Shown piece by piece: positions 19,823 to 26,334 of a DNA stretch of 64,000 nt. Each line of letters begins with the position of its first letter. The stretch's first letter is position 1. Source of the stretch: Escherichia phage ECOH1; sequence record ON540300.1; one strand, written 5' to 3'. The translations under genes were made by a program, and so were the position numbers. The notes beneath the pieces are model-generated. The model was not told the origin of the DNA and searched no databases. It saw only the letters and a list, made by a program, of their open reading frames with translations.

Positions 19823-20677
19823 ATGTTTGAAAAGATTGATAGTGTTTATTATAAAACACTTGATGAAAGGACTGTAACACAGTTTAAAGATAAATTTATC
19901 TATACAAGTCTCTTGAAAGCAATCACTGATGAGCTACAAACACTAGAGGATGTTTGCTGGCAGATGCACACAGAGAGAAATATCAGGACGTCAGTAGGTC
20001 AACAACTTGATAATATTGGCTCACTGATTAAAGTTCCTAGACCTTTAGGTGCTGATGATGAAACATACAGAGCTATGCTTTATATCCAAATCTTCCTAAG
20101 ACGTTCTGATACTACTCCAACATTCTTGCAAAAAGCAATTATGACATTGTATGGTGCAACTTTCTCTCAGATTTTTGAGCATATTACTCCTAAGACTGGT
20201 GGTATCGTTATCCGTATTAATACTAGAAAAAGCGTTCTTGATGCTGCATATACACTGTCAAAGATTTCTGCAACAACCACTGGTTCCGCTGTTATCTTAA
20301 GAGATGTTACTTTAAATGGGACTGCTTGGACACCTGTAGAGGTTGCTGATTCATCACTTGCTATTGTTGATGATAAAGAGAACTGGTTTGTAACTGATGC
20401 TAACAGGGGTCTGGTAACAAATAACACTGGTGGCTCTCTGGAGTCCAACCTAGTAGGGAGTCTTGCAGATGCTGGTGTTATTGATGGTTACTTTAAGGTT
20501 GACAGAACAGCAAACCCACAGAGCGATGATTATATGACTGTAGATAGGTCCAATAATAGTGGCTATTTCATTGCTGGTAAAGAAGCTATTGCAGGTGGTG
20601 CATATGGAATCATGGCTGAGGTTGCACAAATTGTCAAAGGCAGAAAAGATAAATCACAACAAGAAGGAAATTCTTAA
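19823..20677 (+). CDS. baseplate I-like protein (putative)
   Basis: 284-aa ORF following J-like gene. Confidence 0.4.
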
Positions 20678-20979
20678 TGGCAGTTCTAAATTGGTCTACA
20701 AACGAAGTAGATACTGATGGTAATCAGTTAAAAGTTTTACCACCACCGGAAGTTCAAGAGACAGGTCTTTTAAAGGGTGAGCCTATGGGTAGACAGTGGT
20801 TCAACTATATTATCAACTACCTGCTGAATAAAGTAAATGGCACTGTTGGTGAAGTTCGTTCATATGCAACTGAGCAACCAGATTTAGTGGCTAATGGCTG
20901 GAATCTCATTAAGTCTGAGACAGGGACTGCATCAACAAGTACAAGAAACCTTTACACATATGAATATGTAGGAGCTTAA
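20677..20979 (+). CDS. hypothetical tail protein
   Basis: 100-aa coupled ORF before fibre genes. Confidence 0.4.
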
Positions 20980-20981
20980 TA

Positions 20982-22157
20982 ATGGCAGTAGGTGAAATTC
21001 AAATTAGTGCCTTGCCACAAGCGGCCTTACCAGTTGATTTGAGTGATATCTTCCACCTTAAGCAAGGTGTTGAGGATAAAAGATGTACGCTTGAGCAGTT
21101 GTTAGCACCTCACGCATCTTTGAGGAATAACCCTCATGGTGTAACTAAATCACAAGTAGGTCTTGATAATGTTATTAACTCTCTTCAATTAGTTGCAGCT
21201 AATAACTTGTCAGATATTGTAAGTGTTGCTGAGGCAAGAGCAAATCTACAAATTATGTCGTCAGAGGAAGTGAATAACTTAATTCAGCAACATATTGACG
21301 ACAAAAGTAACCCACACAATACAACGAAAGCACAGGTTGGTTTAAGTAATGTTCAGAACTGGACAACATCTAATCTGTACAATGAAGATGCTGATAAGTA
21401 TGCTACCGCGAAAGCAGTTAATAATTTATACAAAGCTATCCAAGCGTCATATCCAGTAGGGACTATTCATCTATCTGTTAACTCTGCTAACCCATCCACT
21501 TACTTGCTTTGTGGAGGTACTTGGGAGTTAGTTTCTAAAGGTAGAGCACTAGTTGGTTATGATACAGATTCTAGACCTGTTGGTTCAACGTTTGGTTCTC
21601 AGACTGTAGCATTAACAAATAATAATTTACCAGCACATACTCACTCTATCTATCTAACAGGTGGTGGTCATACACACTCTGCAAGTGTATCTATCTCTAG
21701 TTTTGATTATGGTTCAAAAAGTACATCAACTTTTGATTACGGTACAAAAACGACTAATAGTGCTGGTGCTCACACTCACACGTTTAGTGGCACAACAAGT
21801 AATGCTGGTAACCACAACCATAGAGTCCCTATGAGGGGTAATGATAGGGGTGGCACAAACGCTATCACTGCATCTGCTGATGCTGGTGTTGGTAATGCTA
21901 TGTATACTGATTTAGCTGGTGCTCACACCCATAGCTTCTCAGGTACAACTGCATCATCTGGTGCTCATAGCCATACTGTCGCAATTGGTGCTCACAGCCA
22001 CACTGTTAATATTGGTTCGCACAGTCATACAGGCACTGTTACTGTTTCTAGCTCTGAGCATACACACTCAGGGACATCTGGTTCTGTTGGTGGTGGTCAA
22101 GCTTTCAGTGTTGAGCAGCCATCTTTTGTAGTGTATGTGTGGCAGAGAACAGCTTAA
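20982..22157 (+). CDS. tail fibre protein with C-terminal His-x-His repeat domain
   Basis: Repeats such as GAHTHSFSGTT, GAHSHTVAIGAHSHTVNIGSHSHTG; C-terminus ...VVYVWQRTA shared with the next gene. Confidence 0.6.
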   Translation: MAVGEIQISALPQAALPVDLSDIFHLKQGVEDKRCTLEQLLAPHASLRNNPHGVTKSQVGLDNVINSLQLVAANNLSDIVSVAEARANLQIMSSEEVNNLIQQHIDDKSNPHNTTKAQVGLSNVQNWTTSNLYNEDADKYATAKAVNNLYKAIQASYPVGTIHLSVNSANPSTYLLCGGTWELVSKGRALVGYDTDSRPVGSTFGSQTVALTNNNLPAHTHSIYLTGGGHTHSASVSISSFDYGSKSTSTFDYGTKTTNSAGAHTHTFSGTTSNAGNHNHRVPMRGNDRGGTNAITASADAGVGNAMYTDLAGAHTHSFSGTTASSGAHSHTVAIGAHSHTVNIGSHSHTGTVTVSSSEHTHSGTSGSVGGGQAFSVEQPSFVVYVWQRTA

Positions 22158-22203
22158 TTTCTTTACAGGGGCTATAAAGCCCCTTTTAAGAGGAAAATTC
22201 ATA

Positions 22204-24753
22204 ATGGCAGATTACAAATTGAGTCAATTAAACTCAATCGACACAATTCGTTCAGAAGACCTATTGCACATCAGAGTTAAGAAAAGACCTGAAATGTTGG
22301 GTGACGAAGACCGTAGAATGACCTATCAAGACTTCTTAGCTTCCTTCAAACTAGAAAGGTTTGTTCAGATTGCTGGGAGTACTATGGTTGGGGATTTAGG
22401 TATTGTCAAGTTACTTTACGGTGGTAAGGCAGTATTTGACCCAACAGGCTCTTCTGAGATTACTATTGGGGATATTTTAAAGACTTTTAAAATTAACTCA
22501 AATGGGCTTAAACTCACTATTGCAGATGCCACAAGGTCGGCAACTGTTTATCATACTTTGAATAAACCAAGCCCTAATGAACTTGGTATGAGAACTAATG
22601 AAGAGAATGATGCAAGATATGCAAGGCTTGCTGTTACAAACACATTCTCTGGAACTCAGAACATTCAAGGTGATGCTAACTTACTTCGTCTTAGAAACCA
22701 GAATGCAAATAATGCGCAATATATTGAGGGTGTGAACTTAGATGGTTCAGCTAGATGGTGGGTTGGTATTGGTAGTAATGGCTCTGATGAAGTAAAACTG
22801 TACAATAACAAATACAACTCAGCTTTGACTATTGCAAGCAATATCTCTGTTAATAAGTCTTTAGCAATCACTGGACAAGTTCAACCTTCAGATTTCTCTA
22901 ACTTAGATGCTAGATACTTCACTCAGACAGTTGCTAATCAGAGATTTGCACAGTTAGCTGGCAATAATACTTTTACAGGTGCTAACACATTTAGGACTAT
23001 GAGTGTTATTTCAAATGCTGCTGCTATCACACTGCAATGTGCATCAGCAAACGAATCCCTGTATCTACTTGCAAAAGATTATGAAGGTGGAAACTTATGG
23101 TATCTTGGTAAAGGTAGTTCAGGTGCTGGTGTAACTATCTACAACTATACCACTGACACCTCTTTGGTCTTAGATGCTGCTGGAGTATCAGCAAATAAAA
23201 ATGTCAGAATCACTGGACAAGTTCAACCTTCAGATTGGGCTAACATTGACTCTAGATATATTCCGGCAGCAACATTAAGTACAATTGCAAGAACTAATGC
23301 AAGGAATACTTTTAATGGTGTACAGACAGTTGTTACGGATAATGAAGGTCTGATTGTTAAAAACTCTACTCAGAATAGACCATTATATATTCGTGGTGTG
23401 GACACTACTAATGTATCAAGATGGTGGATTGGTGTTGGTGGTGCTGATACGAATGATGTTACCCTAAATAACAGTTATTCTGGAACCCAATTGGTTCTCG
23501 GAAATACAACATCATACATTAACAAAACATTGACTATTGCTGGACAAGTTCAACCTTCAGATTTCTCTAACTTAGATGCTAGATACTTTACGCAAAGTGC
23601 TAGTGATAGCAGATACCTAAGAATCAGAAGTACTAGTTTTAATTTAGGAAACGGTGAAAAGTGGGCTAAAATCGCTACTGTTGTAATGCCACAATCAACA
23701 TCTACGGCAGTCATTGAGGTTTTTGGAGGTGCTGGTTTTAATGCGAATAACCCATACCAAGCAGGTAAGTGTGAAATTGTTTTACGAACGTCAAATAATA
23801 ATACAAAGGATTTAAATGCTGTAGCTTGGAGAACAGCAGATAATGCCCTCATCACGGATATTGGTTATATTAACACTTCTGGTGACACTTATGATATTTA
23901 CTGTAAGGTTGGTGGCTACCAAAATTCTACGGTATCTAGGGTTCAATCTTCTAGTAATGCAAGTGTACAGTTGTTTGAAGTCCCGCAAACATTTGATGAT
24001 GCTCCACAAGGTATTGTGAAGGGTACACTTGCAAGGTACTACACAAGTTTGCAAAAACCAACCCCTTCAGATATTGGTGCATACACTAAAGCAGAGACTG
24101 ACCAGAAAATTGCAGAAGCGATTAGTGACTCTACAGACCTGAATAAAATCTATCCAGTAGGTATTGTGACGTGGTTTAACAGCAATGTTAACCCTAATAC
24201 AGCACTTCCTGGGTTAACTTGGACGTACCTGAACAATGGTGTTGGCAGAACTATTAGAATTGCAGCAGCAAATGGTTCAGATGTTGCTACAACTGGTGGT
24301 TCAGATTCTGTAACGTTATCTGTTGGTAACTTACCTTCACACACGCACAGTTTCTCTGCTACCACTTCGACGTTTGATTATGGCACTAAGCACACAGATG
24401 GTCAGGGTGCTCACGACCATGATAGAGGTAATATGGAAATTCATGGTGATTTTGGTTTCTTCAGGAGTGACACATCAAGCTTCTACACTGCTAGTGGGTC
24501 TTTTGCTATCTCAGGTTCACAAGCATCTAGAGGATACACAGGTAATAACTTCACTTACGGTACTCCTGTTAATTTCTATGCCTCTAGAACTTGGACAGGT
24601 AGAACAAGTTGGGTAGGTGCTCATACACATGGTGTAGGTATTGGTGCTCATAACCATACGGTAAGTGGTAACACTGGTGGTACAGGTTCTGGTTCAGCAT
24701 TTAGTGTTACTAACCAGTTCTACAAGTTAATGGCTTGGGTAAGAACTGCTTAA
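22204..24753 (+). CDS. large tail fibre protein with internal repeats and C-terminal His-x-His domain
   Basis: 849 aa from ATG 22204 (RBS aagagga); three copies of ITGQVQPSD(F/W)SN(L/I)D(A/S)RY; C-terminal SHTHSFSATTSTFDYGTK...GAHTHGVGIGAHNHTV...MAWVRTA. Confidence 0.6.
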   Translation: MADYKLSQLNSIDTIRSEDLLHIRVKKRPEMLGDEDRRMTYQDFLASFKLERFVQIAGSTMVGDLGIVKLLYGGKAVFDPTGSSEITIGDILKTFKINSNGLKLTIADATRSATVYHTLNKPSPNELGMRTNEENDARYARLAVTNTFSGTQNIQGDANLLRLRNQNANNAQYIEGVNLDGSARWWVGIGSNGSDEVKLYNNKYNSALTIASNISVNKSLAITGQVQPSDFSNLDARYFTQTVANQRFAQLAGNNTFTGANTFRTMSVISNAAAITLQCASANESLYLLAKDYEGGNLWYLGKGSSGAGVTIYNYTTDTSLVLDAAGVSANKNVRITGQVQPSDWANIDSRYIPAATLSTIARTNARNTFNGVQTVVTDNEGLIVKNSTQNRPLYIRGVDTTNVSRWWIGVGGADTNDVTLNNSYSGTQLVLGNTTSYINKTLTIAGQVQPSDFSNLDARYFTQSASDSRYLRIRSTSFNLGNGEKWAKIATVVMPQSTSTAVIEVFGGAGFNANNPYQAGKCEIVLRTSNNNTKDLNAVAWRTADNALITDIGYINTSGDTYDIYCKVGGYQNSTVSRVQSSSNASVQLFEVPQTFDDAPQGIVKGTLARYYTSLQKPTPSDIGAYTKAETDQKIAEAISDSTDLNKIYPVGIVTWFNSNVNPNTALPGLTWTYLNNGVGRTIRIAAANGSDVATTGGSDSVTLSVGNLPSHTHSFSATTSTFDYGTKHTDGQGAHDHDRGNMEIHGDFGFFRSDTSSFYTASGSFAISGSQASRGYTGNNFTYGTPVNFYASRTWTGRTSWVGAHTHGVGIGAHNHTVSGNTGGTGSGSAFSVTNQFYKLMAWVRTA

Positions 24754-24760
24754 TCCCTTA

Positions 24761-24789
24761 TTGACTGATTGTTAAGATGGTGTTAATAT
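24761..24789 (+). promoter_or_regulatory. sigma70-like promoter TTGACT-N17-TAATAT flanked by a 9-bp inverted repeat
   Basis: TTGACT 24761-24766, TAATAT 24784-24789; inverted repeat aagatggtg (24774-24782) / caccatctt (24806-24814). Confidence 0.45.
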
Positions 24790-24832
24790 TCTTTATGGGT
24801 ATTCTCACCATCTTGGCTGATGAGGTGATTAA

Positions 24833-25030
24833 ATGCCTACAATCCTAGCAATTCTTCTAAAAAATCTAGGTAGCTTCTTCTGGAAACTCATTTTATCCCT
24901 TCTAAGTGAATACATGATTGAGAAAGTGTTCTTTAGGCTTGCAAGATACCTTGCGAGTAAAACAGACACACCTATTGATGATGAGTTCGTAGATAACTTA
25001 GAGAAAGCTTTTAAGGGGGAGAATAAATGA
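24833..25030 (+). CDS. small membrane protein (putative)
   Basis: 65-aa ORF with hydrophobic N-terminal segment, RBS gaggtg. Confidence 0.45.
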   Translation: MPTILAILLKNLGSFFWKLILSLLSEYMIEKVFFRLARYLASKTDTPIDDEFVDNLEKAFKGENK

Positions 25031-25398
25031 AGTGGCTAGAGGAAGCTTTTAAAAATAATATTGGTGCAATTGTAGTTGGTATTTTTAGTGTTATTGGGAT
25101 GTATACCACGATGCAAGTTTCAAGTGGTAAACAAGAAGTGTCTGTCTCAACAAAGTTACAGCAGCTAGATAATTATTCAAAAAGTAATTACTCAGCTATT
25201 CGTGATTTACAGTCTGACATGAGACTGCTACAGCTAGGGATGGAGAACCAGAAAGTCCAGTTAGAGAATGTTAAGGGTGAGAACGCAAAACTTACTAAGA
25301 CTCTTGATAAATTCTCTGATAGTGTGAACAATCTGGCTCAATCAGTATCAGCCCTCCAAGCTATTACTGAAAAGAACACAAAGAATACTGAAAAGTAA
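25027..25398 (+). CDS. membrane-anchored coiled-coil protein
   Basis: N-terminal TM segment (IGAIVVGIFSVIGMYTTM) followed by coiled-coil-like region. Confidence 0.45.
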   Translation: MKWLEEAFKNNIGAIVVGIFSVIGMYTTMQVSSGKQEVSVSTKLQQLDNYSKSNYSAIRDLQSDMRLLQLGMENQKVQLENVKGENAKLTKTLDKFSDSVNNLAQSVSALQAITEKNTKNTEK

Positions 25399-25405
25399 AG
25401 TTTAA

Positions 25406-25432
25406 GGCTCCTTTTTACGGGAGCCTTTTTTG
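25406..25432 (+). terminator. intrinsic terminator between convergent gene blocks
   Basis: ggctcc(t)-loop-(g)ggagcc hairpin followed by T6; lies between + ORF ending 25398 and - ORF ending 25435. Confidence 0.65.
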
Positions 25433-25434
25433 TT

Positions 25435-26334
25435 TTATTTACCTACTGACAAAGGTGCTTCAATCTTTCCTGCATGTTGGTAATTGTTAATACCACCAAT
25501 AAAGTCACTTGCAGTGAGATGTTTTAAGTCACTTAAAGTGTTAAGTGGGATACCAATCTCAAAAGTTGGTGCATGGAACTCTTCATTGTTCATCAGTTCA
25601 TAAACCTGTTTCATATGGTTCTGATAAATCTGAGTATCTCCAAAGACACCTATCAAGTACCGTGGAGTATATCCAGTCATCTTACAAAGAACTTCCAGAA
25701 TAAAACCGTAAGATGCAATATTAAATGGAAGTCCTAAAAAGGTGTCTACTGAACGCTGATACCATTGTAAGTCAACTTCACCCTCGTTAGTAATATAAAT
25801 CTGAAACAGAACATGACAAGGTGCTAGAGCCATTGAGTTTGCTGCAATATCTGCCGCATTCCAAGCATTAACAAGCATGTAACGGTCTGTGATATCACCC
25901 TTCATCTTCGTTACTAAGGTCTCTAACTGGTCTACAACACAACCGTTATGACCTTCAAAGTTTCTCCACTGAACACCATAAATTCTTCCACCCGCATCTT
26001 CTAACCAATCTTGTTCAGAAGAGTAATTAGAGCTTAACCAGCGTTTAAAATCATCTGACCAGATAGTCCAGCGTTCTCCATCATTCTCACCCCAAGTACG
26101 GTAACGGAGTTCACCCAGCTTATTCTCACCATTCAGGAACCATAAAGCTTCCCCGATAACTTGCCGTGTAAACACCTGTTTAGATGTTAAGAGCGGGAAA
26201 CCAGTTCGCATATCAAAACGAAACTGAGGTGGAGCAAATGCAGAGATAACATCTCCAGTTCGTGTAGTACGCAGTTCACCAACTGATAAAACATGGTTCA
26301 GGATATTTTTGTAACTCAAATCTGCTTGTGACAT
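25435..26334 (-). CDS. thyA: thymidylate synthase (ThyA family)
   Basis: Motifs GRIYGVQWRNF and catalytic-Cys region MALAPCHVLFQIYI; adjacent DHFR gene supports a thymidylate synthase assignment. Confidence 0.75.
   Translation of the reverse strand: MSQADLSYKNILNHVLSVGELRTTRTGDVISAFAPPQFRFDMRTGFPLLTSKQVFTRQVIGEALWFLNGENKLGELRYRTWGENDGERWTIWSDDFKRWLSSNYSSEQDWLEDAGGRIYGVQWRNFEGHNGCVVDQLETLVTKMKGDITDRYMLVNAWNAADIAANSMALAPCHVLFQIYITNEGEVDLQWYQRSVDTFLGLPFNIASYGFILEVLCKMTGYTPRYLIGVFGDTQIYQNHMKQVYELMNNEEFHAPTFEIGIPLNTLSDLKHLTASDFIGGINNYQHAGKIEAPLSVGK

Follow-up and report, generated by a model that had tools for sequence, protein, structure and literature searches.

Comparative evidence for cassette exchange at conserved motifs in the tandem tail fiber genes of Escherichia phage ECOH1

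Why would a tail fiber gene carry direct repeats that are alike at the DNA level, and what happens at such repeats among related phages? This question is raised by positions 20982-24753 of a 64,000-nucleotide (nt) stretch of Escherichia phage ECOH1 (ON540300.1), referred to here as the window, whose numbering is used throughout. An earlier note on this DNA had described two tandem fiber genes with related C-terminal ends rich in His-x-His (HxH) motifs, and three repeats in the larger gene that were proposed to be substrates for recombination and module shuffling. Comparison with related phages makes it very likely that the region comprises the short tail fiber (STF) and long tail fiber (LTF) genes of a Felixounavirus, a Felix O1-like myophage, and that their products are two baseplate fibers. 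We are similarly confident in the reading developed below, in which both fibers carry tips of the T4 gp37 type and the LTF has a three-unit shaft whose linkers act as joints where relatives recombine.

The 4.3 kb around the fiber genes share 94.4% nt identity with Escherichia phage KEP3 and ~92-94% with wV8 and the O157 typing phages (91.9-94.4% across the wV8/KEP3 range). The STF matches the tail fiber family phrog_2097 (E 1e-138), its wV8 counterpart is annotated as a tail fiber, and it is 75% identical in amino acids (aa) to Bas63 gp26 over its full length. The LTF matches the tail fiber family phrog_4277 along its full length and shares 60-67% aa identity with Bas63 gp27. Gene order at the locus matches that of wV8, HMD-P8 and Bas63. 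Coordinates of the individual features are collected in Table 1.

Table 1. Features of the ECOH1 tail fiber locus, in window coordinates (ORF, open reading frame).
Feature	Position	Strand	Basis or remark
Short tail fiber (STF) gene, 391 aa	20982..22157	+	ORF; wV8 gp82 / Bas63 gp26 ortholog
Predicted STF receptor-binding tip, T4 gp37 type (aa 145-362): collar, needle with 9 HxH, small head	21414..22067	+	phmmer vs PDB 2XGF
Variable central module of STF tip (head and two HxH), between His-box DNA repeats	21752..21958	+	blastn breaks; repeats D4 21753-21796, D2 21960-22006
Hairpin GGGGCTATAAAGCCCC followed by TTTT, between STF and LTF	22168..22187	+	fold -16.1 kcal/mol, z -3.0
Long tail fiber (LTF) gene, 849 aa	22204..24753	+	wV8 gp83 / Bas63 gp27 ortholog
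Shaft unit 1 (PF20744, aa 159-247): variable beta-helix cassette and linker R1	22678..22944	+	Pfam E 3.2e-34
Repeat copy 1 (linker R1), encodes ITGQVQPSDFSNLDARY	22850..22925	+	repeat family D1
Shaft unit 2 (PF20744, aa 275-356): variable cassette and linker R2	23026..23271	+	Pfam E 6.4e-18
Repeat copy 2 (linker R2), encodes ITGQVQPSDWANIDSRY	23192..23267	+	family D1, 70% identical to copy 1
Shaft unit 3 (PF20744, aa 381-466): variable cassette and linker R3	23344..23601	+	Pfam E 1.2e-29
Repeat copy 3 (linker R3), encodes IAGQVQPSDFSNLDARY	23519..23594	+	family D1, 86% identical to copy 1
Middle shaft module (aa 467-616), long form	23602..24051	+	~77 aa longer than Bas63-type LTFs; most relatives have a 231-234 nt gap in the alignment
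LTF collar region and first His boxes (aa 647-745)	24142..24438	+	Pfam Gp10_C E 4.9e-6
Variable LTF head module, between His boxes GAHDH (24406-24420) and GAHTHGVGIGAHNH (24616-24657)	24390..24633	+	33-62% nt identity to relatives

The LTF shaft contains three matches to the Pfam family PF20744 (gp37_trimer), scoring 117, 65 and 103 bits against a cut-off of 21.7, and every one of these units has a DNA repeat close to its C-terminal end. Thirty related loci were compared, 27 from IMG/VR (labeled L0xx) together with wV8, HMD-P8 and Bas63, and 26 full-length LTFs, that of ECOH1 and those of 25 relatives, were placed in a codon alignment. Relatives are uniformly close to ECOH1 over the first 143 and the last 40 aa of the LTF and over its collar, and their linkers hold 60-100% identity. 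Each beta-helix cassette is either ~90-100% or ~40-60% identical in the 25 related LTFs, uncorrelated with the neighboring slots. The cassette of unit 1 is ~90% or ~41-52% identical to its counterparts, that of unit 2 is 100% identical in L002 and L025 and 40-61% identical elsewhere, and that of unit 3 is 99-100% identical in L001, L002 and L007 and 39-65% identical elsewhere. Identities in slots 1, 2 and 3 are 92, 52 and 99% for wV8, 49, 100 and 45% for L025, and 90, 51 and 42% for L016, and pairwise cassette identities are bimodal.

Boundaries of the blocks of identity recur in independent comparisons, at 22627-22635, 22878-22899, 22963-22983, 23212-23223, 23300-23303 and 23549-23554, and these positions sit in the linker cores and in the NTF motif that opens each unit. 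The left crossover of L025 maps within a 15-nt invariant stretch of linker 1. Several relatives match the ECOH1 LTF only to about aa 447-477, that is, as far as repeat copy 3, and the DNA identity of SP22 ends at position 23587. When allele clusters were defined at a threshold of at least 80% aa identity, the 75 cassettes from the 25 relatives fell into 36 clusters, and 20 distinct combinations were found in the 26 LTFs. Two allele pairs, the first from slots 1-2 and the second from slots 2-3, occurred in all four possible combinations.

Cassettes are also found in different slots of different phages. A 290-nt cassette in slot 3 of L003 is 94% identical to the one in slot 1 of L024; GenBank has eight records, all of Salmonella phages, in which this cassette occupies slot 3, and eight more, of E. 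coli or Salmonella phages, in which it occupies slot 1. The ECOH1 slot 3 cassette type was found displaced only in HMD-P8, where it occupies slot 2 (83% over 389 nt), and in Bas63, where a more distant relative lies in slot 1. The ECOH1 slot 2 cassette was found in no other slot, being in slot 2 in 15 of the 15 records that hold it. The same logic extends to the STF module at 21752-21958 and to the LTF head at 24390-24633, each of which lies between His-box DNA repeats. Because the identities are mosaic, the breakpoints recur, alleles occur in all four combinations and a cassette has changed slot, recombination at conserved motifs in these fiber genes is well supported by the sequence comparison. 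This bears out the earlier proposal of recombination and module shuffling at the repeats: in the fiber genes of related phages, the breakpoints fall at the linkers and the cassettes between them are mosaic. Beyond the third unit, LTF aa 474-637 gave tblastn matches of 30-50% identity to T-even gp37, to a fiber of the P1-like phage SJ46 and to a protein of the T5-like phage phi458; judged by these matches, the middle shaft module is a further mosaic module common to several phage families.

Some database records of these genes are irregular. The LTF frame of L013 (Salmonella phage Si3, KY626162; locus ~6080) is interrupted precisely at linker repeat 3, which leaves ORFs of 453 and 336 aa, and that of L019 is broken further on, near aa 541; either sequencing error or real truncation is possible in both. 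Felixounavirus fiber genes, with ~80-96% DNA identity, also appear in GU169904 (Staphylococcus phage SA1) and MG065664 (Campylobacter phage A132), records whose unrelated stated hosts suggest contamination or chimeric assembly.

The repeats themselves are spaced by 342 nt between copies 1 and 2 and by 327 nt between copies 2 and 3. Copies 1 and 3 share an exact run of 49 nt (22871-22919 and 23540-23588), as the earlier note had estimated for the first and third of its DNA-level repeats, and copies 1 and 2 share an exact run of 29 nt (22866-22894 and 23208-23236). All 15 codons of GQVQPSDFSNLDARY are alike in copies 1 and 3 (P ~5e-6 from local codon usage), and in the immediate flanks of this run none of the seven codons for the same amino acid is identical. 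The likeness of copies 1 and 3 exceeds protein constraint, and ordinary beta-helix periodicity with no identity in the DNA, which had been named as a finding that would overturn the claim, is not what the sequence contains.

Both fibers end in a domain related to the T4 gp37 tip. The STF tip aligns with PDB 2XGF (T4 gp37 tip, gp37 residues 785-1026) at a phmmer E value of 1.8e-26; all seven gp37 HxH motifs are aligned in the STF, which has one extra HxH at each outer end, and a Pfam Gp10_C match covers STF aa 154-276. HxH motifs occur in the STF at aa 219, 230, 264, 278, 315, 329, 338, 347 and 360, nine against 1.4 expected, and the LTF has four against 0.16 expected; in neither protein did any of 20,000 shuffles reach the observed count. 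The motifs GAHTHSF, GAHSHTV and GAHNHTV, by which these HxH-rich ends had originally been recognized, are all present. LTF aa 707-826 also match 2XGF, more weakly than the STF does (E 1.6e-5), and two of the LTF motifs lie before and two after a ~70-aa head, so that the LTF needle would be the shorter one. STF and LTF align by BLASTP at 30% identity across 273 aa (E 3e-15). The alignment takes in the similar ...VWQRTA and ...AWVRTA ends, which are kept in all relatives examined. By sequence homology, the tips are paralogs of each other and homologs of the T4 gp37 tip, which sustains the duplication first proposed from these related ends; since the tips are only ~30% identical, this duplication would be old and not recent. 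Homology also suggests that STF and LTF are homotrimeric, and the HxH layers may bind metal as those of 2XGF do.

The tips are variable in both genes. The His-box DNA motif GGTGCTCAYNNNCAY occurs seven times over the two fiber genes (repeat family D3), and Tandem Repeats Finder reports only the 27-nt His-box periodicity at 21948-22024. In blastn comparisons with L014, L017, L018, L020, L024 and L027, the alignment to the STF breaks at 21749-21751 and resumes at 21959-21960; the STFs of L017, L018, L020 and L024, like that of Bas63, have seven HxH motifs instead of nine, L014 and L027 being exceptions. The STF needle DNA at 21723-21815 is ~81% like the LTF tips of other phages. The LTF collar region holds 88-96% nt identity in nearly all Felixounavirus relatives, and both flanks of the LTF head module hold at least 88% in most. 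In an alignment with Bas63, wV8 and the STF, the LTF head takes the place of the two inner HxH motifs of Bas63-type LTFs.

The authors of the Bas63 study described the variability of the shaft as "not expected" and offered three explanations for it, all based on mutation (PMC12609058). According to the first of these, the repeats would be mere structural periodicity of a beta-helical fiber, and shaft diversity would come from point mutation in tolerant regions. Such periodicity fits the coincidence of the repeats with the ends of the three PF20744 domains, the constant number and position of the motif in all LTFs examined, and linkers whose synonymous conservation is not raised. Point mutation, however, cannot yield bimodal identities with no continuum between them, adjacent-slot alleles in all four combinations, segments of 97-100% identity between segments below 50% in one phage pair, or one cassette that keeps 94% DNA identity although its slot differs from phage to phage; as the only explanation it is contradicted, and we regard it as improbable. 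An assembly artifact is an unlikely source of the slot-swapped and mosaic sequences, as 16 independent GenBank records show both arrangements. In principle, two units could be lost or doubled by recombination between 49-nt direct repeats set 669 nt apart, so that unequal exchange would expand or contract the shaft and alter fiber length. Repeat number did not vary, however: exactly three linker motifs stand at the same positions in the 24 complete LTFs fitting the motif pattern, the Bas63 authors found repeat numbers constant across the genus, and the length differences that do exist fall in the middle and head modules. We consider this alternative very improbable.

A recent gene conversion inside the ECOH1 gene would explain why the identity of copies 1 and 3 is so sharply bounded, with every codon alike inside the run and none of the same-amino-acid codons alike outside it, and why all three ECOH1 copies start with GGA although copy 1 of every close relative, and of most other phages, starts with GGT. 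But wV8 has the identical copy 3 sequence, L002 has it with a single synonymous change in the flank, and the copy 1 core is one base different from that of L002. The identity therefore predates ECOH1 and, on this comparison, is not a recent event private to it; averaged over the 26 LTFs, copies 1 and 3 are also about as similar between phages as within a phage. Conversion within ECOH1 thus seems unlikely to us. Hypervariable tips and shafts among relatives might also suggest programmed diversification of the fiber gene, by a diversity-generating retroelement or a Gin/Cin-type invertible segment. The D1 repeats are direct, however, the only inverted repeats in the region are pairs of 15-17 nt at chance level, and the variation takes the form of whole-cassette alleles, not of site-specific substitutions. 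No reverse transcriptase or invertase is found among the annotated neighbors of the locus in wV8, HMD-P8 and Bas63, a search that did not extend to the whole genome. We give programmed diversification almost no credence. In our reading, exchange of cassettes between phages, and not gradual drift, accounts for the unexpected shaft variability noted for Bas63.

Several observations weigh against this account of recombining joints and gp37-type tips, or narrow it. Synonymous-site identity of the linker cores among orthologs is 0.66-0.73, versus 0.73-0.80 in other conserved parts of the gene; excess synonymous conservation was rejected on these values and, since linker identity is not elevated, nothing points to selection on the DNA itself. 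Linkers 1 and 3 are 0.78 identical within a phage versus 0.76 between phages (26 LTFs), and a general concerted evolution of the linkers was rejected for that reason. The linkers may be crossover points simply as the sole conserved islands in the shaft, and they look like such islands, not like specially evolved recombination sites. The earlier note suggested that such shuffling can alter host range. The traced cassettes are common to phages of E. coli, Salmonella and Shigella, a sharing across hosts that argues against shaft cassettes deciding host genus. Trimer formation and metal binding are attributed to these fibers entirely by homology. A single-sequence AlphaFold2 monomer model of the STF tip was unusable (mean predicted local distance difference test score of 33), and a monomer model without ligands cannot reveal a trimeric metal site.

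In the explanation we favor, cassette exchange between gp37-tipped fibers, each tip would be built of a collar, a needle of six strands and a small head in which the chain reverses. In every HxH layer, a single metal ion (iron in T4) would be bound by six histidines, with nine layers in the STF and four in the LTF, and the variable heads of both genes would sit between DNA-conserved His-box motifs. Each PF20744 unit of the shaft would pair a variable beta-helix cassette with a conserved joint after it, GQVQPSD(F/W)xN(L/I)DxRY. These joints would be constrained as protein; as they are alike over 45-50 nt of DNA across slots and phages, they would offer stretches of homology. Along with the short NTF motif opening each unit, they could let co-infecting relatives recombine, and the exchange would swap single cassettes, occasionally shifting one to another slot, while unit number and fiber length are kept. 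Both the recombination pathway and any phenotypic effect of cassette exchange are inferred. By analogy to T4 (PMC12609058), the heads would be likelier determinants of specificity than the shaft cassettes. A broader proposal, possible but doubtful, is that the Felixounavirus LTF shaft is a three-slot array of interchangeable cassettes, with at least 36 alleles in 26 fibers, traded between phages and between slots via ~50 nt of linker homology, and that its diversity is not neutral and is kept because the cassettes touch a partner that varies, for instance a secondary structure on the host surface or a host defense sensor.

The closest known system is Bas63 (Escherichia phage JohannRWettstein), for which the architecture of gp26 and gp27 was described by cryo-electron microscopy and AlphaFold 3 (Sci Adv 2025, PMC12609058). 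Its STF and LTF both have a gp37-like collar, an HxH needle and a head, and its LTF joint was described as a "triple alpha-helix and turn" between beta-helix domains (PMC12609058). ECOH1 shares with Bas63 the genus, the gene order and orthologous STF and LTF. The two differ in HxH counts (STF 9 and LTF 4 in ECOH1, STF 7 and LTF 6 in Bas63), in the LTF head, which is larger and histidine-poor in ECOH1, in the middle shaft module, which is longer in ECOH1, and in all three shaft cassettes, which are different alleles. In the T4 gp37 tip, the HxH histidines coordinate Fe (2XGF; Bartual et al. 2010, cited in PMC12609058). ECOH1 resembles it in homologous sequence, in the seven iron-coordinating HxH motifs that are in register with the STF, in a gp10/gp37-related collar and in a chain returning via a head domain. 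In contrast to gp37, the ECOH1 tips would be borne on two much shorter single-protein fibers attached directly to the baseplate, with 9 and 4 HxH layers where T4 has 7. The three above-threshold PF20744 matches also relate the shaft to the repeats of T4 gp34 and gp37, and LTF aa 375-637 are ~30-33% identical to T-even gp37; unlike the T4 gp34/gp37 rod, the shaft has only three units here, each with many discrete alleles in one genus.

In T-even fiber and adhesin genes, exchanges take place within or near conserved motifs, and fibrous motifs are interchangeable (Tetart et al. 1996, 1998, summarized in PMC3157838). The ECOH1 locus has the same hypervariable segments between short conserved motifs, at its linkers and His boxes, here on purely comparative evidence. 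Shigella phage Sf14 (Mooglevirus, Ounavirinae) likewise has two single-protein fibers per baseplate position; the distal tip of the longer one is T4 gp37-like, and a separate chaperone was not recognized (PMC11821841). Sf14 belongs to a different genus, and the Moogle-like LTFs in our set (L014, L027) are ~50% identical to that of ECOH1, with more diverged linker motifs. The papers searched contained no description of fiber cassette exchange in Felixounavirus, which is not proof of absence, and none of cassette movement between slots of one shaft.

The fiber architecture is already published for the Bas63 orthologs, and recombination at conserved fiber motifs is a classic T-even concept; both ideas being in the literature, the finding alters little, and the cassette-exchange pattern is a modest addition to published work. 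It places the natural crossovers of Felix O1-type fibers in the linker cores, in the NTF motif opening each unit and in the His boxes flanking the heads. These sites are obvious junctions for engineering chimeric fibers in phages that serve Salmonella and E. coli O157 diagnostics and biocontrol.

The surroundings of the two genes were also annotated. Upstream of the fiber genes lie genes for a baseplate J-like wedge, a baseplate protein and a 100-aa protein, and downstream of the LTF lie two small ORFs followed by td and frd on the opposite strand. The LTF ORF as called mechanically starts at 22135; its true start is almost certainly the ATG at 22204 (ATGGCAGAT), downstream of the ribosome-binding site AAGAGGAAAA, which agrees with the annotation of wV8 and Bas63. 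The hairpin between STF and LTF received no call in a consensus terminator scan because only four T follow it. The equivalent site in wV8 is annotated as a rho-independent terminator, and the ECOH1 hairpin is probably a weak (leaky) intrinsic terminator. If leaky, it would reduce expression of the LTF relative to the STF, and lowered LTF expression might relate to the partial LTF occupancy (0-6 fibers) reported on Bas63 virions. Three successive late genes have an alike translation start context, (A/G)GGA...TAATGGCAG, at 20658-20684, 20963-20989 and 22185-22211 (repeat family D8), and their proteins start MAV..., MAV... and MAD....

The intergenic sequence after the LTF stop, at 24754-24832, is almost invariant in all related loci, even where the body of the LTF is less than 50% identical. 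An 86-nt stem-loop is predicted at 24750-24835 (-33.6 kcal/mol, z -7.0); it has no Rfam match, a scan of 20500-25600 returning sub-threshold chance hits only, and its invariance leaves no covariation to assess. The segment also includes, at 24761-24789, a sigma-70-like promoter (TTGACT-17-TAATAT, preceded by TG). Downstream of this invariant segment lie ORFs of 65 and 123 aa, the latter annotated as "holin" in HMD-P8.

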